This document shows positions 2,666 to 40,525 of a stretch of 62,184 bases of DNA, piece after piece (position 1 is the first letter of the stretch; each line of letters begins with the position of its first letter). Under the pieces are notes generated by a model, which worked only from the letters and a program-made list of their open reading frames with translations, had not been told where the DNA came from and searched no databases. This stretch comes from Rickettsiales bacterium (lineage in GTDB: Bacteria; Pseudomonadota; Alphaproteobacteria; Rickettsiales; UBA1997). The stretch covers positions 1 through 62,184 of the forward strand of contig SYAR01000041.1 in the NCBI GenBank assembly GCA_005787525.1. The letters run 5' to 3'. The position numbers were made by a program, and so were the translations under genes.

Positions 2666-3580
2666 ATGATTAAACTTTTACAAAAAAATTGCAAATTCTT
2701 AATCACGGGGGCAACCGGATTTATTGGCTCAAAATTATGCCAAGAACTTTTGTCTGACGGACATCAAATCATAGCGCTTACGCGTCAAAAAAATAAAATT
2801 TCGATGCATGAAAATTTAAAATATATTAATGATTTAGATGAAGTAAATTTTAATTTTGATGTAGTGATTAACCTAGCGGGAGCACCGATTTCGTCTTATT
2901 GGACGCAAAAAAATCAACAAGAAATTCGCGACAGTCGTCTTAAAATTACGCAAGAAATTGCCGAAAAAATTATCAACAGCGAAAACCCGCCAAAGCTTTT
3001 TATTAGCGGTTCGGCGATTGGATTTTACGGCACTTCAAATTCAATAATTTTTAGTGAAAATTCTCATCCAACTAAGCAAAATTTATTTTCACAAAAATTA
3101 TGTAAAGATTGGGAAGAAATTGCGTTAAAAGCGCAAATTAAAACGCGAGTGGTTTTGCTTCGAACTGGCGTCGTTGTAGGCGAGTTCGGTGGCATCATTA
3201 AAAAACTTTCAGTGCCTTTTAAATTGGGGCTCGGAGGCAATATTGGCGATGGAAAACAAATCATGAGTTGGATTCATTTGGAAGATGTGATGGGAATTTT
3301 AAGTTTAATTATGAATAATTTTTCAATCGCTGGCGCCATCAATTTAGTGGCTCCGAACGCTTGTTCGAATGCGGAATTTTCACAAAAATTAGCTAAAAAA
3401 TTTTCGCGTCCGTGTTTTTTTCATATGCCAAAAATAATTGCTCAAACTTTATTTGGAAAAATGGGCGAGGAACTTTTGCTTTCTTCGCAAAAAATCGCAC
3501 CGCATAAAGCGATTGAAAATGGTTACGATTTTAAATTTTCACAGATTGGAGAGGCGATCGAAGCTCTTAAAAATATCTAA
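2666..3580 (+). CDS. TIGR01777 family NAD-dependent epimerase/oxidoreductase (YfcH-like)
   Basis: ITGATGFIG, VINLAGAPI, SGSAIGFYG, GDGKQIMSWIH. Confidence 0.88.
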   Translation: MIKLLQKNCKFLITGATGFIGSKLCQELLSDGHQIIALTRQKNKISMHENLKYINDLDEVNFNFDVVINLAGAPISSYWTQKNQQEIRDSRLKITQEIAEKIINSENPPKLFISGSAIGFYGTSNSIIFSENSHPTKQNLFSQKLCKDWEEIALKAQIKTRVVLLRTGVVVGEFGGIIKKLSVPFKLGLGGNIGDGKQIMSWIHLEDVMGILSLIMNNFSIAGAINLVAPNACSNAEFSQKLAKKFSRPCFFHMPKIIAQTLFGKMGEELLLSSQKIAPHKAIENGYDFKFSQIGEAIEALKNI

Positions 3581-11082: not shown

Positions 11083-13485
11083 ATGAAACCCACATCAATC
11101 ATCAAAAACATTTTCACATCCGAACGTTTAAATTTTATTTTTTATGCAGTTTTATTGTTCATTTTAGGTTGTGCCTTTGGTATTTATTATGAAAAAAATT
11201 GTGAATATTTTTTGCAATTTTTTGTAATAATATTTGGTTTTTTAATTATGGTTTTAAGCCTTGATTATAAATCATCAAGAGCAGTTTTTTATTTAGCATT
11301 AATCATATTTATTTTAGGAATTTTTTATAGTAATTTTTATGTAAAACATTTTGCCAAAAACGAAGTTTTTGCACAAAAATTATATATAAAAGGTGAGGGT
11401 AAAATTATCGATTTAAAGGAATTTTATAATCCGGTAAATCGTAATTTTGGCGTTAATATTTCGCTCGATAATTTAACCATTTCAAAATTAAATTTTCAAA
11501 ATAATAAAATCAATAAAGCCAGTGATAAGAAGGTTAAAAAAGTTAAGAAAAAAAAGAAAAAAATCAAAAAAAAATCAAAAAAATCGGCGGAAAAAAGAGT
11601 AAAAAAAACGGCGAAAAAAATTTCTAAAACCCAAATTAAAAAACAACAAGCTTTTGCGAAAAAAATTTATAAAAATTATATCAATCTTAGCAATTATCAA
11701 GAGGTCGATCGGCGTTTTTTAGATTTCAAAAAAAATAATTATAGTCAAAATTGGATTGCCAAAAATAATGAATTTATTCTCGAAAATTCTCCGCAAAAAA
11801 TCTCGTTAAATTTAGCCAAACAATCAACAAAATTCAATATTAATGATATTATTAAATTTAATGCAGTCATAGAGCCACTTGATTTTCCAGATTTTAAAGA
11901 AAGTTTCGATTTAAAATCAAATGCTCGAGTTAAAAATATTCAAGCCTTTGGATTTTTTATTGGAAAGCCACAAATTATTTTGCAAAATCAAATCAATTCG
12001 ATTGATTCATGGTTTTTAAATTTACGCGAAATTATTCGAAAAAAAATTTTAAATAATTTAAGCGGAGATGGTGCTCATGTTGCTTTGGCGTTGTTAATTG
12101 GCGAACAAAAGCATATTTCTAAAAATTTACTCTGGGCAATTCGTAATTCGGGTTTGTCGCATTTATTGTCGATTTCGGGCTTTCATTTGTCGTTGGCGAG
12201 TGCGATTTTTTTTGTGAGTATTCGTTGGCTTTTGGTGCGAATTGAATTTATCGCTTTGCGTTTTGATATTAAAAAAATTTCGGCGATTTTTGCCATTTTT
12301 GCCAGCTATTTTTATTTAAAAATTGCCGATGCACCTTTGCCGGCTCAACGTGCTTTAATCATGGTGTGGATGGTGATGTTGAGTTTGTTAATTAATCGCA
12401 AATTTGATGGTAAAAGAGCGTTATTTTTGGCGTTGCTTTTGTTGGTTTTATTTAACCCGCATAATTTATTTCAAATCAGTTTTTTATTATCTTTTTTGGC
12501 AATTTTGACCATGGTTTGTTATGTCGAAACTTTTCGTGAAAAAATTTTCCCCGATTATAATTTAAAACTTGAAGATAAATTTATCACCGGAATTTTGAGT
12601 AAAATAAAATTATATTTTTGTGAAATTTTTATAATCACCGCACTTATTCAAATCATTACTTTGCCAATTTTAATGAACAGCTTTCAAACCTTCAGTTTTG
12701 TAGGCTTCTTCGCTAATTTGGTGGCGATTCCTTTGGTCGGTTTTTTGATTATGCCTTTGGGTTTTTTAGCATTATTTTTGATGCCAATTTCTGTGGAAAT
12801 TTTGCCTTTATTTTTGATGAAATATTCGCTAGATTTTTTTATTAAATCCGTTGAATTTTTTGCCGATTTTAAATTTGCAATCGTCGCCACCCCTCATTTA
12901 CCAAGCCTTGGATTGATTTTATGTTTAATTACTTCGGTAATATTTTTTATCGCCAATAATAAATTTTTAAAAATTATTATTTTGTTATTTTTTATTTTAA
13001 GTTTTGGCACAATTTTTTTGCATAAAAAAAATCAAATTATTTTTGAAAAATCACAAAAATTTTATGGCGTTTTTTATGAAAAAAATTTATATTTTTCTAA
13101 AAAACTAAAACCTACTAAGCAAGTAAAATCATGGCTTAAACATTTCGAAGTCCAAAATTTTGAAGTGATAAAAAAATGTACAAAAAATAAAAATTTAAAT
13201 CAAAAAATTTGCCAAAAATGTTATAAAAATTATTGTGAATTGCATGTTGAAAATCAACAAATTTTGGTGTTAAATGGGCGTAATAAATTATCAAAAATTT
13301 GTCGAAAATTTAAAGCCAAAAAATTTGATGCGATAGTTAATATGACCAAGAAATACCAGATTCCACCATGTTTTGCAAAATATAATAATCCTAAAATTAT
13401 TATTGATAATTCGGATTTTTTGTTAAAAGGCACTAATTTTTTAGAAATAAAAAATAATAAACTAATTTATTTTTATAATAACTAA
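11083..13485 (+). CDS. comEC: ComEC/Rec2 DNA-uptake channel protein with a Lys-rich insertion
   Basis: ALLIGE, GLSHLLSISGFHL, RALIM, FQISFLLSF, ANLVAIPL and many TM segments; no recognisable C-terminal metallo-beta-lactamase motif. Confidence 0.88.
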   Translation: MKPTSIIKNIFTSERLNFIFYAVLLFILGCAFGIYYEKNCEYFLQFFVIIFGFLIMVLSLDYKSSRAVFYLALIIFILGIFYSNFYVKHFAKNEVFAQKLYIKGEGKIIDLKEFYNPVNRNFGVNISLDNLTISKLNFQNNKINKASDKKVKKVKKKKKKIKKKSKKSAEKRVKKTAKKISKTQIKKQQAFAKKIYKNYINLSNYQEVDRRFLDFKKNNYSQNWIAKNNEFILENSPQKISLNLAKQSTKFNINDIIKFNAVIEPLDFPDFKESFDLKSNARVKNIQAFGFFIGKPQIILQNQINSIDSWFLNLREIIRKKILNNLSGDGAHVALALLIGEQKHISKNLLWAIRNSGLSHLLSISGFHLSLASAIFFVSIRWLLVRIEFIALRFDIKKISAIFAIFASYFYLKIADAPLPAQRALIMVWMVMLSLLINRKFDGKRALFLALLLLVLFNPHNLFQISFLLSFLAILTMVCYVETFREKIFPDYNLKLEDKFITGILSKIKLYFCEIFIITALIQIITLPILMNSFQTFSFVGFFANLVAIPLVGFLIMPLGFLALFLMPISVEILPLFLMKYSLDFFIKSVEFFADFKFAIVATPHLPSLGLILCLITSVIFFIANNKFLKIIILLFFILSFGTIFLHKKNQIIFEKSQKFYGVFYEKNLYFSKKLKPTKQVKSWLKHFEVQNFEVIKKCTKNKNLNQKICQKCYKNYCELHVENQQILVLNGRNKLSKICRKFKAKKFDAIVNMTKKYQIPPCFAKYNNPKIIIDNSDFLLKGTNFLEIKNNKLIYFYNN

Positions 13486-19780: not shown

Positions 19781-20731
19781 ATGACAAACAAAAATTCTAA
19801 AAAAGCCTTTTCCTTGGTTGAAATTTCAATCGTAATTTTGATTATCGGCTTGTTAATAGCTGGAATTTCAAAGGCCGGCGATATGATATTTGATGTAAGT
19901 TTAAAATCCGCAAGCTCATTAACAAAAGGAGCAAAAGTTGGTCGTATGCCAGGTTTGGCTTTGTGGTTAGAAACTACTAGCAACGAATCAATTCTTGAGA
20001 AAGAAAGATATGATAATACAGATATTTCAATTTGGCGCGATATTAATCCGCAATCATCTTCGAAATTTATTTTTAAAAAAGTTGGAGCGCCAAAATATGT
20101 GGAAAAAGGGCAAAATAATTTACCTGCGGTTGGATCTTTAAGTGGTGATAATTATTTCATACCTTATACTTCAGAAACCAGTACAACTGTTGCCGCTTAT
20201 CAAGCAAATCAAATTTTTTCTTCCGGCACTTTGTTAACAATTTTTATGGTTTTGAAACCTAAGGCAATTGCAGCAGATTTACTTTCTTTTTGCCCATACT
20301 CTACTGGATCAAATTTAGATGCGTGCACTACTTCCGCTAAGTATATTGGTCTGGGTTTAACTGCTAGTGGTAATGTAGTATTTAATACTGTGGGTGGGAC
20401 GGCCGCTGCTGCAGCTACAAGTACAATAACATCCACTAATTCTTATACTCTTAAAAATTTAATTGTAGTTTCTGCCATAAAAGATGCAACGGATAATCTA
20501 AAATTAGCTGTAAATGGAGCAAGTGCGGCTACAGCAGTTGCTAGCACTAATAAATTAATGACTTCTTCTTTTAATGGAACCTTTAGAGTTGGTGGTGTTC
20601 TCGCTACTGACGTTGAGATTTATGAAATTATTGTATTTGCTTCAGCGTTGAGTGATACTGATAGATTAGTTGTTGAGACTTATCTTGGAAAAAAATATAA
20701 TGTTGCAATGACCAAGACTACGACTTTATAA
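19781..20731 (+). CDS. Prepilin-leader protein with LamG/ConA-like domain (paralog 1)
   Basis: KKA|FSLVEISIVILIIGLLIAG class III signal; family motifs LALWLETT, WRDINP and YEIIVF...VETYLGKKY. Confidence 0.8.
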   Translation: MTNKNSKKAFSLVEISIVILIIGLLIAGISKAGDMIFDVSLKSASSLTKGAKVGRMPGLALWLETTSNESILEKERYDNTDISIWRDINPQSSSKFIFKKVGAPKYVEKGQNNLPAVGSLSGDNYFIPYTSETSTTVAAYQANQIFSSGTLLTIFMVLKPKAIAADLLSFCPYSTGSNLDACTTSAKYIGLGLTASGNVVFNTVGGTAAAAATSTITSTNSYTLKNLIVVSAIKDATDNLKLAVNGASAATAVASTNKLMTSSFNGTFRVGGVLATDVEIYEIIVFASALSDTDRLVVETYLGKKYNVAMTKTTTL

Positions 20732-31320: not shown

Positions 31321-32205
31321 TTATGACAAAGAAATATTAAATTTTTTCGATAAATATTTTTCAACATCGATTCTTTCTTTGTCTATTAATTCTCGTGAAA
31401 AAATTATAATTTCGCCAATGTCGCCTTTGAAGTAATGTGGGGTTGCGGTGCCATATTCAGTGACGCCAATATATCCCGAAAAATTACTTAAAGTTGTTAA
31501 ATTATTTGACGATTTATCGGGAGTGCTTCCGCCATTAAGCCAATATTTTTTGCCATTAGAAGAGCTTAGAATAAAAGTGTGAATTCGTGGAATTATTTCT
31601 GTAGCTTTGAAGCTATTTATGGTGTAATCAAAAAAATCACTATCGCTGACTCCATATTTACCAACTCTTATCAGAGAAGAGTTGGAATAGCCCAAGTGAA
31701 AAACACCACTTCCGCCACCTATAAAATAAATGTGAGTGTCTGCAGATCTTCTTTGTTCAACGGCGAATATTGTGAAATTTCTGCCATTCATAAAAGTTGA
31801 GTTAAAAGGGAAATTATCGGTAGAGCCATCAAACTGAATGGCTGGAATCGAATTGTCGAAAGCTCGCGAAACATATTTAGGTTTTTGAGCGTCGGTTGTT
31901 TGCAAAACCGATTTTTTAATACCGCTTTGAATATTTATATCAAGCCAAGTTGAAATTTTCAAATTGTGAATTTTTTCCGAGGAAATAAAGCTTTCATCGA
32001 GAGTGGTTTCAAGCCATAATTCTAAATCAGGAATGCGATTGACTCGAGAGTTTTTGGTGAGGGTTCGAGCGGTTGATAATCTAGCATCTTGATATAAATC
32101 GATTCCATTGGAAATCCCTGCAATTAGGATGCCAATGATTAAAATAACCATGGAAATTTCGACTAAAGAAAAAGCAAATTTTTTATGTTTGAAATTTTTC
32201 TTCAT
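31321..32205 (-). CDS. Prepilin-leader protein with LamG/ConA-like domain (paralog 2)
   Basis: KKFA|FSLVEISMVILIIGILIAG, LELWLETT, WLDIN, GDIGEIIIF...VEKYLSKKF. Confidence 0.8.
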   Translation of the reverse strand: MKKNFKHKKFAFSLVEISMVILIIGILIAGISNGIDLYQDARLSTARTLTKNSRVNRIPDLELWLETTLDESFISSEKIHNLKISTWLDINIQSGIKKSVLQTTDAQKPKYVSRAFDNSIPAIQFDGSTDNFPFNSTFMNGRNFTIFAVEQRRSADTHIYFIGGGSGVFHLGYSNSSLIRVGKYGVSDSDFFDYTINSFKATEIIPRIHTFILSSSNGKKYWLNGGSTPDKSSNNLTTLSNFSGYIGVTEYGTATPHYFKGDIGEIIIFSRELIDKERIDVEKYLSKKFNISLS

Positions 32206-34622: not shown

Positions 34623-35408
34623 ATGAAGAAATATTTTTTAGTTTTATTATTGTTGCCGAGTTTAGCCTTCGCAAACAACGATGTCGACCCATCAATTGAC
34701 GAATCGAAAATCACAACAGCTCTTCATCCTAAAAAAATGAAATGGGAATTTGATGGTTTTTTCGGACGATTTGATCGGGCTTCAATTCAACGTGGTTATC
34801 AAGTATACAAAGAAGTGTGTTCAGCCTGTCACGGCATGAAATTAATGTCTTACCGCAATCTTCAAGATATTGGTTTTTCGGAAGCCGAAGTTAAAAATAT
34901 CGCCTCCGAATATTTAGTCACCGACGGCCCGAATGATGATGGCGAAATGTTTGAGCGATCAGGTTTGCCTTCCGACAAATTCGTTGGACCTTACGCTAAT
35001 GAGCAAGCGGCGCGATCAGCCAATGGTGGTGCTTATCCACCGGATTTATCCTTGATTATCAAGGCTCGCCACGATGGCCCGAACTATGTTTATTCATTGT
35101 TAAACGGCTATAAAGATGCCCCAGAAGGCTTTGAATTGGCGGTTGGTAAAAATTATAATCCATATTTTGAAGGTAGACAAATCGCTATGCCTTCTCCGAT
35201 CAATGATGATGGGCAAGTTGAATATAAGGACGGCACGATTGCCACCAAGGAACAAATGACAATCGATGTCGTTAATTTCTTGCAATATGCCTCCGAACCA
35301 GAATTAGAGCATCGCAAAAAAATGGGCGTTCGCACCATGATTTTCCTCGGTATTCTCTTTGGTTTATTACTTTCCGCCAAAAGAGCGATTTGGAAAAATG
35401 TTAAATAA
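34623..35408 (+). CDS. petC: Cytochrome c1
   Basis: QRGYQVYKEVCSACH, PPDLSL, C-terminal TM anchor. Confidence 0.96.
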   Translation: MKKYFLVLLLLPSLAFANNDVDPSIDESKITTALHPKKMKWEFDGFFGRFDRASIQRGYQVYKEVCSACHGMKLMSYRNLQDIGFSEAEVKNIASEYLVTDGPNDDGEMFERSGLPSDKFVGPYANEQAARSANGGAYPPDLSLIIKARHDGPNYVYSLLNGYKDAPEGFELAVGKNYNPYFEGRQIAMPSPINDDGQVEYKDGTIATKEQMTIDVVNFLQYASEPELEHRKKMGVRTMIFLGILFGLLLSAKRAIWKNVK

Positions 35409-35420
35409 TTTTAAATATTT

Positions 35421-35969
35421 ATGACTTTTATTTTTAACCAAGAAAATCAAGAAAAAATTCAAAAAATTTTGGCAAAATATCCGCCTGAACGCAAGAAATC
35501 AGCGGTTATGCCCTTGCTTGATTTAGCGCAAAGACAAAATGATAATTGGATTTCCAAAGACGTAATTGCTAAAATTGCCGAAATTTTAGAAATGCCTGAA
35601 ATTAAAGTTTATGAAGTCGCCAGCTTTTACACGATGTATAATTTAAAACCCGTCGGCAAATATCTTTTACAATTCTGCAAAACTACACCCTGTATGCTTC
35701 GAGGCATTGATAAAATTATCAAAACTTGTGAAGAAAAATTTGGAATTTCAATGGATCAAACTACCGTCGACGGACTCTTTACTTTCAAAGAAGTTGAGTG
35801 TTTAGGGGCTTGCGTCAATGCGCCCATAGTGCAAATCAATGATGATTTTGCCGAAGATTTAACCTCCGAAAATTTTTTACAAATTTTAGAAGATTTAAAA
35901 AACGGTAAAAGTTTTCAAGTCGGATCACAAGTTGGACGCAAATGTTCCGCACCCGCAACTAATCAATAA
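35421..35969 (+). CDS. nuoE: NADH-quinone oxidoreductase subunit E
   Basis: SAVMPLLDLAQRQ, EVASFYTMY, CKTTPC, ECLGACVNAP. Confidence 0.95.
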   Translation: MTFIFNQENQEKIQKILAKYPPERKKSAVMPLLDLAQRQNDNWISKDVIAKIAEILEMPEIKVYEVASFYTMYNLKPVGKYLLQFCKTTPCMLRGIDKIIKTCEEKFGISMDQTTVDGLFTFKEVECLGACVNAPIVQINDDFAEDLTSENFLQILEDLKNGKSFQVGSQVGRKCSAPATNQ

Positions 35970-36060
35970 AATTTTAAATATTTATTGATTTTAAAAGTAA
36001 TTTAATTTTAAAAATACTAAATTTTATAATTAAATCACTTAATATTTTTAATCCAAATAA

Positions 36061-36209
36061 ATGAAAAATTTTCATAAAAAAGCCTTTAGTTTAGTTGAGC
36101 TTTCGATGGTTATTTTAATTATCGGCATCTTGATAGCAGGCGTTTCACAGGGGATAGATTTATATCAAGATATGAGATTGGCAACGGCGAGAGCTCTTAC
36201 GCAAAATTC
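36061..36209 (+). repeat. Direct repeat copy 1 (constant 5' block of paralogs 3 and 4)
   Basis: 147/149 nt identical to 37006-37154. Confidence 0.95.
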
Positions 36210-36945
36210 GCGAGTTAATCGCATTGAAGATTTAACCATGTGGTTCGAAAGCACTTCCGAACAAAGTTTCGAAAAGCCCAATCCAAATGATGGCGACAGA
36301 ATCGCTTTATGGAAAAATATTAATTTTAAATTATCTAATCGAATCGATGTAGCTCAATCAACTCAAGCTTCCAAGCCATTTTATGTGAGAAATGGAATAA
36401 ACAATATTCCGGCACTACGTTTTGATAATGGTCAACTTCTAATCGCCAGTAATGTTAAAATTTCAGAAATTGTAAGCTCAGATCAAGCCACAGTTTTTGT
36501 AGTTCAAAATAATTTTAGTGGCGATACCACAACGACAACTTTTGGATGGTATAGTGGTGGATATAGATTCCAATCTCACGCACAAGAATCAAATAAAGTT
36601 TTAATAGATTATGGGTCGGAAAGCGCTTCTGGGACAATGAGAACTTCAACCCAAACATTAACAAATTTTTTAAATCAAAATAAAATTATAAATTTTGTAA
36701 AAAATGGTTCAAATGTTATAATCAAAATAAATGCTCAAAAATCAGCAGAATCTTCGGGTTCAAGTGGAGTGATTGATATGTCTCTTTCGGCAAATTTTTC
36801 AATCGGTAAATATCTTCCATCAATTAACGATTATTTTTTTAACGGCTATATTGGCGAATTAATAATTTTTAAAAGAGCCTTAAACGATGCGGAAATAAAT
36901 GACGTCGAAAAATATTTATCCAAAAAATGGTCGATTAAAATTTGA
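36061..36945 (+). CDS. Prepilin-leader protein with LamG/ConA-like domain (paralog 3)
   Basis: KKA|FSLVELSMVILIIGILIAG, LTMWFEST, GYIGELIIF...VEKYLSKKW. Confidence 0.8.
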   Translation: MKNFHKKAFSLVELSMVILIIGILIAGVSQGIDLYQDMRLATARALTQNSRVNRIEDLTMWFESTSEQSFEKPNPNDGDRIALWKNINFKLSNRIDVAQSTQASKPFYVRNGINNIPALRFDNGQLLIASNVKISEIVSSDQATVFVVQNNFSGDTTTTTFGWYSGGYRFQSHAQESNKVLIDYGSESASGTMRTSTQTLTNFLNQNKIINFVKNGSNVIIKINAQKSAESSGSSGVIDMSLSANFSIGKYLPSINDYFFNGYIGELIIFKRALNDAEINDVEKYLSKKWSIKI

Positions 36946-37005
36946 TTTTTAAGATAATTTTAAACATAATTTAAAAAAATTTATCAAATTTACTAATAAA
37001 AATAA

Positions 37006-37154
37006 ATGAAAAATTTCCACAAAAAAGCCTTTAGTTTAGTTGAGCTTTCGATGGTTATTTTAATTATCGGCATCTTGATAGCAGGCGTTTCACAGGGGAT
37101 AGATTTATATCAAGATATGAGATTGGCAACGGCGAGAGCTCTTACGCAAAATTC
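37006..37154 (+). repeat. Direct repeat copy 2 (constant 5' block of paralogs 3 and 4)
   Basis: 147/149 nt identical to 36061-36209. Confidence 0.95.
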
Positions 37155-37878
37155 AAGAGTTGGTCGTATTGATAATTTGGAATTGTGGTTGGAAACAACT
37201 ACTGAAAAAAGTTTTGATAATAATGAGGAGTTTGATGGCTCTTCAATAACAAAATGGTATGATATTAATCCAAAAAATACCCAAAATAATTATGTATTTT
37301 CAAATGGCGATAATCGTCCAAAATTTTTAAAATCTTGCGTAGATAATAATTTACCATGTATAGAATTTAGCTCGGCAAACAATCAATATCTTGAAAATTT
37401 AAATCCAATTCCTGAAACCACTGAATTATCAATTTTTTTTGTGGTTAACTTTAAGACGATAAATACTTCATGTTGCACGGCAATTTTTACATCTGTGGGC
37501 ACTTGGCAACCAAAAGAACTTCATATAAATATAACTAATAGTAAATTTCAATATGGCATTCGAAATTCCTTATCAACCGATCTTACTTTGTTATCCACAA
37601 CAACGCCTATAGCTAAGAAACCTTATATAATTGAAATGATTGATGGTGACGTTTTTAATCTTTATTTTAATGGTTCATCAGAGGGTTCGATGGTAACAAA
37701 TTATATAAAAAAAATCAGTAATTTCAATATTGGAAGATGGTTAAATGGTTCCACGGTATCGCGATATCTTGATGCTTATTTTTATGAAATTATTATTTTT
37801 AGAAAAAAACTCACTGATAATGAAAGAAAAGATATCGAAAAATATTTATCCAAAAAATGGGCGATTAAAATTAATTAA
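37006..37878 (+). CDS. Prepilin-leader protein with LamG/ConA-like domain (paralog 4)
   Basis: First 52 aa identical to paralog 3; LELWLETT, WYDINP, YEIIIF...IEKYLSKKW. Confidence 0.8.
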   Translation: MKNFHKKAFSLVELSMVILIIGILIAGVSQGIDLYQDMRLATARALTQNSRVGRIDNLELWLETTTEKSFDNNEEFDGSSITKWYDINPKNTQNNYVFSNGDNRPKFLKSCVDNNLPCIEFSSANNQYLENLNPIPETTELSIFFVVNFKTINTSCCTAIFTSVGTWQPKELHINITNSKFQYGIRNSLSTDLTLLSTTTPIAKKPYIIEMIDGDVFNLYFNGSSEGSMVTNYIKKISNFNIGRWLNGSTVSRYLDAYFYEIIIFRKKLTDNERKDIEKYLSKKWAIKIN

Positions 37879-38377
37879 TTTTAGCGATAATTTCCTCAAT
37901 CTCATCTTCATCAAGCTCACCCTGAATTACTTTAAAAATTTGTTGATTTTTGTCTAGAAAATAGGTCGTCGGGATTGATTTAGGAATTTCAAAACTAATT
38001 TTTTTTGCATCATCATAAAAAGCGTTGCCAAAAGATAATTTATCGGCGATTATTTTGACATCATTAAAATATTTTTTATCATCAATTGAAATGCCTACAA
38101 CCTCAAGTCCTTGCGACTTTTTTTCTTGATAAATTTGGTCTAAAATTTTTAATTCTTGTTTGCAAATTCCGCACCATTTTGCCCAAAAAACAATTATGGT
38201 TTTCTGATTTTTTTGCGAAGATAAATTAAATTTTTTTCCGTTAAGAAAAGTGATTTCGAGTTTTGGTTGAAGGGTCTTCGAGACCTTAATTTCCTCGGTT
38301 TTCTTGGCATGATTTACAGCGAAACAATCGACATTTAATAATAAAAAAATTGTTAAAATTTTGAATAAATTTTTCAT
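37871..38377 (-). CDS. TlpA/ResA-like thiol-disulfide oxidoreductase
   Basis: Signal peptide, FWAKWCGIC, VVGISID, cis-Pro motif IPTTYF. Confidence 0.88.
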   Translation of the reverse strand: MKNLFKILTIFLLLNVDCFAVNHAKKTEEIKVSKTLQPKLEITFLNGKKFNLSSQKNQKTIIVFWAKWCGICKQELKILDQIYQEKKSQGLEVVGISIDDKKYFNDVKIIADKLSFGNAFYDDAKKISFEIPKSIPTTYFLDKNQQIFKVIQGELDEDEIEEIIAKIN

Positions 38378-39168
38378 GAAAAATTTGCTTTTAAATTAAA
38401 ATCGCCGAGAAATTCTTGAACTAGAGTAAGGGCGGAAATCATGGCGGTGTCGGCGCATAAAATTCTTGGCCCCAAATTTAGGGCAAAACAATTTTTTAAC
38501 GAATGTAATTTTGCGAGCTCTTCTTTAGAAAAACCACCTTCGGGACCAATAAAAATTATAATTTCTTGATCAATTTTTGGTGAAATATTGGCAAGAACTT
38601 CGCTGGCTTTTTTGCCATTTCCTGACTCATCGCATAAAATTAAAATTTTATTTTCCAAATTTTCTTTGAGTAAATTATCAAGTTTTTTTATCGAAAAAAT
38701 TTGCGGAAAATCATTGCGTCCACATTGCTCGCAAGCCTCTTTAATATTGGCTTTGAAGCGTTCTTCATTAATTTTATCAACAATAGTTCGGTGAGTAATT
38801 ATTGGTTGGAAATTTCTGATGCCGAGTTCGCACGCCTTGCTCGCCACGAAATCAATTCGTACATTTTTAACGGGCGCAAAGGCTAAAGTTATGTTTGGAG
38901 ATTTTCTTAAATCATTGATTTTTTCGGTGAGTTGTAAAGTTAAAGATTTTTTTTGTATATCAATTATTTTGCCGATGAAATCACCGTCAAAACCGTTGAA
39001 AATCATGATTTTATCGCCAATTTTTTGTCGCATCACTTTGATTAAATAATCAAAATCATTGTTGTTAATTTGAAGTTTTTGATTTAAAATATCGCTAGAT
39101 AAATCGAGTTTTATATCGAGAAAGAGTCGAATTTTTGGTAATATTTTTTTGTTAGAAAACTCAAACAT
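38374..39168 (-). CDS. rsmE: 16S rRNA m3U1498 methyltransferase
   Basis: KACELG, EACEQCGR, IGPEGGFS, LGPRILCADTA. Confidence 0.92.
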   Translation of the reverse strand: MFEFSNKKILPKIRLFLDIKLDLSSDILNQKLQINNNDFDYLIKVMRQKIGDKIMIFNGFDGDFIGKIIDIQKKSLTLQLTEKINDLRKSPNITLAFAPVKNVRIDFVASKACELGIRNFQPIITHRTIVDKINEERFKANIKEACEQCGRNDFPQIFSIKKLDNLLKENLENKILILCDESGNGKKASEVLANISPKIDQEIIIFIGPEGGFSKEELAKLHSLKNCFALNLGPRILCADTAMISALTLVQEFLGDFNLKANFS

Positions 39169-40366: not shown

Positions 40367-40525
40367 CACTCTTAAATGGTGCGACCGAATTTATTAGGTT
40401 TCGTCATTAAATTTGCATGCGCAAATTTAGCTTTCTTTTGAATCGCTTCACGGCGAGTAAATCGCTTTATTCGCGATGAGTTTTTAAGTTTTTTTATAAT
40501 TTTGTTTGTGGATAAATGCATCATT
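40367..40525 (+). repeat. Modular palindromic intergenic element family A, copy 1
   Basis: Shares blocks with 46347-46374 (27/28), 41542-41564 (21/23), 41661-41699 and 46551-46570 (17/20). Confidence 0.85.

Follow-up and report, generated by a model that had tools for sequence, protein, structure and literature searches.

Probable gene conversion of a shared stem segment between two old, tandem pilin-like genes in an uncultured bacterium filed under Rickettsiales

The msp2/p44 family of Anaplasma consists of surface proteins with conserved ends and a variable centre, with one expression site and many truncated pseudogene donors. Among the bab paralogues of Helicobacter pylori the N- and C-terminal regions are near-identical and the divergent middle is conserved per paralogue; passages of PMC4552749 also describe gene conversion within the first ~60-240 bp, the chimeras that result, and loci that are empty or differently occupied. 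In Neisseria, as set out in the abstracts of PMC3547852, PMC13017665 and PMC13463697, pilin genes with a common constant N-terminal coding region undergo gene conversion between copies, in which variable segments pass from many silent pilS copies into the one expressed gene, pilE, at high frequency and in dependence on a guanine quadruplex (G4). A pilin with a grafted ConA-like lectin module, PilC, is described from Streptococcus sanguinis in part of PMC9934059 (PDB 7OA7/7OA8). Here we analyse two tandem type IV pilin-like genes, g1 and g2, which are near-identical at their 5' ends and strongly diverged beyond them. They lie on contig SYAR01000041.1 of the metagenome-derived assembly GCA_005787525.1 (Rickettsiales bacterium, UBA1997), the whole 62,184 nt of which is called the window below. 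The genome, referred to as G000, comprises 1.46 Mb in 92 contigs, is 84.78% complete and has a GC content of 32.5%.

The two open reading frames (ORFs) stand on the same strand, separated by 60 nt (Table 1). Direct comparison of 36061-36209 with 37006-37154 gave 147 of 149 nt the same, the only mismatches (36072 and 36075) being synonymous T/C differences, and the longest unbroken identity spans 134 nt (36076-36209). A 131-nt piece of this block occurs exactly twice in the window and was not found in any of 100 shuffles. At the 3' ends, 39 of 42 nt agree (36901-36942 against 37831-37872). These identity figures had all been reported in the initial annotation and were reproduced here. Immediately before the start codons, just 32 of 60 nt are the same, and between the ends protein identity is 16-40% per 20-codon window, or about 27-32% for the whole body.

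To place the 5' identity against its background, we compared the 129 nt from the mature N-terminus among 19 family ORFs of the same genome (171 pairs). Median identity was 60% and the 95th percentile 73%; exact runs had a median of 9 nt and a maximum of 21 nt when g1/g2 and a dispersed pair on contigs C40 and C79 were excluded. Those two pairs are the outliers of the comparison (g1/g2 at 98% with a run of 125 nt, C40/C79 at 96% with a run of 68 nt), the next pair reaching 77%. The 5' identity of g1 and g2 is far above the family background.

Table 1 Genes and segments of the g1/g2 locus and related features in the window
Feature	Position	Strand	Basis
g1, type IV pilin-like gene, 294 aa	36061..36945	+	ORF; class III signal peptide, alpha-1 helix, predicted LamG/ConA-like jelly roll
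g2, paralogue of g1, 290 aa	37006..37878	+	ORF; homology to g1 over residues 1-294, E 7.9e-55
Putatively converted 5' segment, copy 1	36061..36216	+	Codons 1-52 (leader peptide and alpha-1 helix); 97% to copy 2
Putatively converted 5' segment, copy 2	37006..37161	+	As for copy 1
Conserved 3' end of g1	36901..36942	+	Last helix of the LamG module, ...EKYLSKKWSIKI; 39/42 to g2
Conserved 3' end of g2	37831..37872	+	39/42 to g1
Upstream locus border, NuoE-type 2Fe-2S thioredoxin-like ferredoxin gene	35421..35969	+	PF01257, 194 bits
Downstream locus border, thioredoxin-fold redoxin gene	37871..38377	-	Pfam AhpC-TSA/Redoxin; convergent with g2, 8-nt overlap
Prepilin peptidase gene, enzyme expected to process the family proteins	53941..54711	+	A24_N_bact 90.4 bits, Peptidase_A24 39.3 bits
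Further family member	19781..20731	+	Homology search
Further family member	31321..32205	-	5' segment 74% identical to g1 and g2
Further family member	57022..57930	+	Homology search

The sister lineage (G032) carries four genes, A-B-C-D, at the same locus. Their sequences were taken from L016; since its C and D genes do not differ from those on G032:C167, the two were treated as a single lineage. Gene A corresponds to g1 as its orthologue (72% amino-acid identity in the body) and gene D to g2 (77%), and orthologues of the two bodies on other contigs have 66-81% protein identity. Over the first 156 nt, g1 and g2 are 97% identical with no nonsynonymous divergence (dN 0), g1 and A are 79% identical with a synonymous divergence (dS) of 1.52, and g2 and D are 83% identical (dS 0.84). 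A comparison of dS between the paralogues, which the initial annotation had proposed as a check, gave 0.13 in this 5' segment against 1.30 in the body (dN 0.87); body dS is 0.62 for g1 and A and 0.94 for g2 and D. In a scan by 13-codon windows, g1 and g2 were more alike than either was to its orthologue in each of the four windows covering codons 1-52, and in none of the 20 windows that follow, the switch from paralogue-like to orthologue-like falling at codon 52/53. The 156 nt hold 14 sites at which g1 equals g2 and A, B, C and D are all equal while the two genomes differ, and no site that would support orthology (g1 equal to A, g2 equal to D, and g1 different from g2).

Phylogenetic analysis gave the same division. 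The maximum-likelihood tree of the 5' segment places g1 and g2 together (support 96/93), and the approximately unbiased (AU) test rejected both the grouping of g1 with its orthologues (p 4.9e-5) and that of g2 with D (p 4.2e-5). In the body tree, g1 groups with A, G008_x and mgL047, and g2 with D (100/99); here it was the grouping of g1 with g2 that the AU test rejected (p 1.1e-7). The bodies of g1 and g2 are old and separately inherited, and the segment for the leader and the alpha-1 helix has been copied between neighbours recently and repeatedly. Because body dS is saturated and each body has its own orthologue in the sister species, the g1/g2 duplication is older than the species split. 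Equally, there is no general nucleotide constraint on the 5' segment, since it is only 79-83% identical to its orthologues and has a median identity of 60% among paralogues. An old duplication alone cannot leave such 5' identity, as the initial annotation had argued; the orthologue comparison shows that recombination is needed. From these alignments and trees, the 5' identity is very probably the product of concerted evolution by gene conversion and not the leftover of an old duplication.

The signature of conversion recurs in other lineages. Within the sister array, identity is 86-97% among the 5' segments (exact runs of 56-87 nt) and 24-33% among the bodies. Protein pairs on four further contigs have 39-43 of 44 N-terminal residues in common, with bodies 38-41% identical in three of them, and the shared residues include lineage-specific changes carried by both members, such as R in place of Q in one lineage and S in place of M in another. 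We then surveyed 71 family genes at 46 loci in 17 genomes and asked which of the pairs with bodies <=50% identical have 5' identity >=85%. Within that set, such pairs account for 7 of the 21 adjacent same-strand pairs and for 4 further non-adjacent pairs, all inside the sister array; they number 0 of 173 among same-genome pairs outside arrays and 3 of 2219 among between-genome pairs. In the comparison that gave the sister-array figures, L063, L066, L067, L068 and L024 yielded no pair (fewer than two genes by motif), and three opposite-strand neighbour pairs were left out. Two orthologous four-gene arrays differ in this respect, one neighbour pair of G017 being 88% identical (run 76) and the neighbour pairs of G006 68-73%, which argues that conversion events are lineage-specific and episodic.

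The array also gains and loses genes between sister species. Between nuoE and the redoxin gene, the number of family genes is zero in G018 and G011, one in G013 (a different body with a similar 5' end), two in G000 and four in G032; G008 and G002 have at least one each, the contig ending there. For eleven more distant genomes of the genus, the stretch examined beside nuoE (no more than ~1 kb in two cases) contained no family gene. The empty site of G018 (G018:C58; L073 about 3425-3541, between the redoxin gene and nuoE) retains a 39-nt remnant that matches the end of g2 at 38 of 39 nt, and the array was therefore deleted in G018. No remnant of an array was seen at the empty site of G011. One contig pairs a g1-type gene (81% to g1 in the body) with a gene whose body matches g1 and g2 at only 38% each.

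Recombination within the family is not confined to this locus. The outlier pair mentioned above, G000:C40:24544-25521 and G000:C79:1999-2895, consists of dispersed paralogues with unrelated flanks that are 87% identical over 542 nt, ~110 nt of upstream sequence included, and 85% identical over their last 112 nt; the middle is unalignable. In protein terms, the first ~140 codons are 80-100% identical per 20-codon window and the last ~35 codons are also common to both. Judged from its sequence, this pair is clearly a recombinant mosaic within the LamG head. Shared ends may help the gain, loss and reshuffling of whole genes.

The 3' ends of g1 and g2 behave differently from the 5' ends. AT-rich codons for ...EKYLSKKW(S/A)IKI(N) make up their last 42 nt, which are 35-41/42 identical among all ten locus genes compared. 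In the register of this ten-gene comparison, g1 and g2 agree at 37/42, g1 and A also at 37/42, and both g1 with G008_x and g2 with D at 38/42. Because orthologues are equally similar there, constraint rather than conversion would explain the 3' end, and protein constraint together with AT-rich codon use appears to be enough for the identity in this genome. Gene A of the sister array has the ending ...WAIKIN, as its neighbours do, while its orthologues end ...WSIKI, a weak hint of 3' homogenisation in that array.

The proteins combine a pilin stem with a lectin-type head. The leader MKNFHKKA is followed by FSLVELSMVILIIGILIAGV, giving a short basic leader, Phe at +1, Glu at +5 and ~20 hydrophobic residues, and an alignment of 41 family sequences shows no variation at F9, E13 and other positions. 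The N_methyl model (PF07963) scores 21.7 bits in g1 and 21.8 bits in g2 (cut-off 21.2), and TIGR02532 scores 22 bits in g1 and 22.2 bits in the other copy (cut-off 16.3). Laminin_G_3 (PF13385) was found in g1 at 31.1 bits (cut-off 27.6). An AlphaFold2 model of g1, made from the 41-sequence alignment, has a mean predicted local distance difference test (pLDDT) score of 91.1 and shows a helix at 11-48, a beta sandwich after it and, at 276-290, a C-terminal helix. Searched with Foldseek against the PDB, this model retrieved ConA-like carbohydrate-binding modules, with S. sanguinis PilC at ranks 5-6 (7oa8, E 3.1e-8; 7oa7, E 1.2e-7). Matches to toxin-binding domains are numerous in the same list and have only the generic jelly roll in common with g1. 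The model predicts that g1 is a modular pilin in which a LamG/ConA-like jelly roll directly follows the pilin stem; g2, which has the invariant columns of the family alignment, would share this architecture by full-length homology. By their fold, the heads are putative lectins that would bind sugars, and the g1 and g2 proteins would be incorporated into a filament.

PilC resembles g1 in having a class III signal peptide, a stem and a ConA-like/LamG module, with a template-modelling (TM) score of 0.52 normalised to the query. In the sections of PMC9934059 that bear on it, PilC differs in being about 53 kDa, in having an extra Ig-like module and in being the product of one gene in a single pil locus. 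The present family, in contrast, has 20 or more paralogues of ~290 aa per genome and belongs to a Gram-negative-type system with a secretin, and its identity to PilC is 11-12%.

From these results we propose the following course of events. The genes g1 and g2 are old and full-length and belong to a family of modular type IV pilins that is large and lineage-specific, their bodies falling into different subfamilies that predate the split from the sister species. Repeated short-tract, non-reciprocal homologous recombination between neighbours, presumably RecA-type conversion between tandem repeats, would keep the first ~156 nt near-identical, and the conversion tract stops at the boundary between alpha-1 and the head, where sequence homology stops. 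All heads of an array would then get one stem that fits the peptidase, the assembly platform and the filament core. Uniformity of the stem may be favoured by that fit, or may be a neutral by-product, and the repeated stems would make the array prone to duplication and deletion. The pattern is ordinary in kind: segmental concerted evolution in a tandem adhesin-like family is a well-known process, here unusually clean.

Several observations count against this interpretation or limit its reach. The groupings submitted to the AU test were chosen after the identity tables had been seen, which makes the p values optimistic, although the effect is large nonetheless. The orthologue basis is small: one sister genome with the full array, two with a partial one, two metagenome contigs and four protein-only pairs. 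An assembler can equalise two very similar repeats, so that identities of 97-100% may overstate the true identity. The loci of the survey were picked from hit lists and are not a random sample, and 14 of the 21 adjacent pairs are under 85% at the 5' end, from which conversion would be episodic and not constant. As to the proteins, the Laminin_G_3 score of g2 is 16.4 bits, under the Pfam cut-off of 27.6. Position -1 of the signal peptide is Ala (A8; window 36082-36084) in all 41 aligned family proteins, the usual Gly being absent. Small residues can stand in for Gly at this position. Finally, a motif scan of the 85%-complete genome found no short (130-170 aa) conventional major pilin. The same scan of G000 found only two class III proteins other than those with LamG, on C26 (about 255 aa) and C53 (about 396 aa).

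Gene conversion at the 5' end has to be weighed first against cassette swapping, in which whole variable heads would be exchanged by way of 5' and 3' arms, within the genome or by DNA uptake, and the 5' identity would mark a recent swap. The mosaic of C40_24544 and C79_1999 around an unalignable middle would fit it, as would the contig on which a g1-type gene is paired with a third kind of body, the single different body with a similar 5' end at the same locus in G013, the array size of 0 to 4, and the presence of ComEC and pilus machinery. We nevertheless consider it improbable for g1 and g2. The pairing of a g1-type with a g2-type gene is seen again in G032 and on two other contigs, each time with its own lineage-specific 5' sequence; swapping would therefore need independent identical swaps, and conversion of the 5' end is simpler. 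The bodies follow orthology, with dS of 0.6-0.9, the 3' "arm" is only 42 nt long and has no paralogue excess in this genome, and in no case was the same body found at two different positions.

The initial annotation had read both constant ends as homology arms for swapping of a hypervariable middle between full-length genes, by analogy with pilE/pilS or msp2/p44. Recombination at the 5' end stands, whereas the 3' end is no converted arm (37/42 against 37-38/42 to the orthologues). The middle is indeed strongly diverged between g1 and g2, but it is not hypervariable, its orthologues keeping 72-77% protein identity. The segment that moves is the constant one, codons 1-52, which is the opposite of what happens in pilE/pilS or msp2/p44, and the analogy also fails on silent truncated cassettes and on a G4 motif, neither of which was found. 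That the genes are full-length was borne out: g1, g2 and 17 further motif-bearing ORFs have an ATG start and a full signal peptide, most of them with the family C-terminal tail.

Programmed variation of the pilE/pilS or msp2 type was accordingly tried as a candidate and rejected, there being no silent truncated donors, a constant part that moves, and no G4 motif (G3+N1-7 x4) on either strand at 35400-38400. To the Neisseria system g1 and g2 are alike in being pilin genes with conversion between copies and a constant N-terminal coding region in common, and unlike it in that both are complete genes, conversion affects the constant segment, and the bodies are stable between species. Conserved ends around a variable centre, in a bacterium filed under Rickettsiales, recall msp2/p44; here, however, the genes are complete, the fold and family are unrelated, and the centres are constant between close lineages. 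The g1/g2 finding does not reveal a new mechanism of programmed variation.

The closest analogue of g1/g2 is bab, as far as it is covered in the passages of PMC4552749: both have full-length adhesin-type paralogues, middles conserved per type, 5' conversion and variable occupancy of loci. According to the same passages, bab differs in that its products are outer-membrane proteins, its loci dispersed and its C-terminal homology long (>90%), with CT-repeat phase variation. In contrast, g1 and g2 are pilin-like and tandem, their homogenised part is the 5' ~156 nt only, and the 3' 42 nt would be held by constraint. Homogenisation at both ends, as in bab, was not found in this genome, where the paralogues agree no better at the 3' end than the orthologues do, and g1/g2 showed no sign of a phase switch based on repeats.

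An assembly artefact, in which similar repeats were collapsed or merged into a consensus, or strains were joined into a chimera, is a very unlikely source of the 5' identity. The genome is a metagenome bin in 92 contigs, 85% complete, and an exact repeat of 134 nt is about the length of a short read, both of which would favour such an error. The two copies retain distinguishing bases at 36072 and 36075 as well as different flanks, however, and the pattern is repeated in independent assemblies, where identity is imperfect (86-97% in the sister array, runs of 56-87 nt). Lineage-specific residues are shared by neighbours on other contigs, and a merge would itself require copies far more alike than the orthologues are. 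Scarcely credible, lastly, is a recent tandem duplication with very fast divergence of the heads under diversifying selection, or else strong nucleotide-level constraint on the 5' end: body dN is high (0.87) and conservation in all pilins is highest in the alpha-1 region, but body dS is saturated at 1.30 with a sister-species orthologue for each body, and synonymous sites of the 5' segment vary freely (79-83% to orthologues, median 60% among paralogues).

The family to which g1 and g2 belong is large and spread through the genus. G000 has 25 matches to g1 at E <= 0.01; a strict motif scan of this genome gave 19 family ORFs and a looser one 23, of which two on C66 are apparently spurious. All 18 other genomes of the genus that were searched contain the family, with 11-46 matches per genome. 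Outside the genus, in other families of the order, one match was found in 3 of 12 genomes and none in the other 9. Many family copies stand in tandem arrays of 2-4. Contig scans for the family gave 4 short loci in metagenome contigs and 3 in genome contigs. In the ESM Atlas, N_methyl and Laminin_G_3 are also combined in clusters labelled as Minisyncoccota and Bacillota, and in clusters labelled as Methanobacteriota that have an archaeal pilin domain. Sequencing runs matching the window numbered 23, from 12 studies, 20 of them with part and 3 with half or more of its words; they are freshwater, lake, groundwater and similar water metagenomes.

Two loci probably represent broken members of the family. 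At G000:C14:3001-3880, an ORF of 145 aa is followed by a match with one TGA inside it. At G002:C23:12711-13073, adjoining nuoE, the match contains three in-frame TAG codons and reaches the contig end.

A search of the literature turned up no account of a LamG-pilin family expanded in Rickettsiales-like bacteria; the supplementary figures of PMC10847448 may bear on it, and the portions of its text that concern the distribution of type IV pili and type II secretion systems (T2SS) treat the subject in general terms only. The lineage-specific expansion of lectin-headed pilins in these uncultured freshwater bacteria filed under Rickettsiales is apparently so far undescribed. As a case of segmental concerted evolution, g1/g2 is natural, clean and well controlled, with a sharp switch at a domain boundary and a recurrence in several lineages. 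If the heads bind glycans, the family is an obvious candidate for the attachment of these small-genome cells to hosts, prey or particles.

In the genome, three T2SSE-family ATPases (one of them PilB-like; PilT-like ATPases are present too), a platform protein (T2SSF) and a secretin (Secretin) score above their cut-offs. Besides its five family members and the prepilin peptidase gene, the window contains a ComEC-type competence gene (11083-13485; PF03772, 190 bits). DNA transfer by transformation is possible, ComEC and pilus genes being present. We put forward, with some reserve and little confidence, the idea that the type IV pilus of the genus may display a large, evolving lectin repertoire whose heads number up to 46 or more in a genome of ~1.5 Mb. 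Each array would have one interchangeable stem kept by conversion, and stems and tails would serve as handles for the gain, loss and between-cell exchange of heads, possibly through pilus/ComEC uptake. If true, such display would be the full-length-gene, population-level counterpart of cassette-based surface variation.

The borders of the locus are conserved. The NuoE-type gene is syntenic in G008, G011, G013, G018, G032 and G002, and the redoxin gene in G011, G013, G018 and G032. A search for the TLC (ATP/ADP translocase) family found nothing, its control also being silent in every genome. A promoter and terminator scan returned 18 promoter-like sites against 12.1 +/- 3.6 expected, in AT-rich DNA. 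Elsewhere in G000, a short dispersed repeat of about 80-130 nt, possibly MITE- or REP-like, has blastn matches of 78-94% on dozens of contigs, for example at G000:C79:6644-6780; the window has a copy at 40405-40516, between an ABC permease gene and the next ORF.

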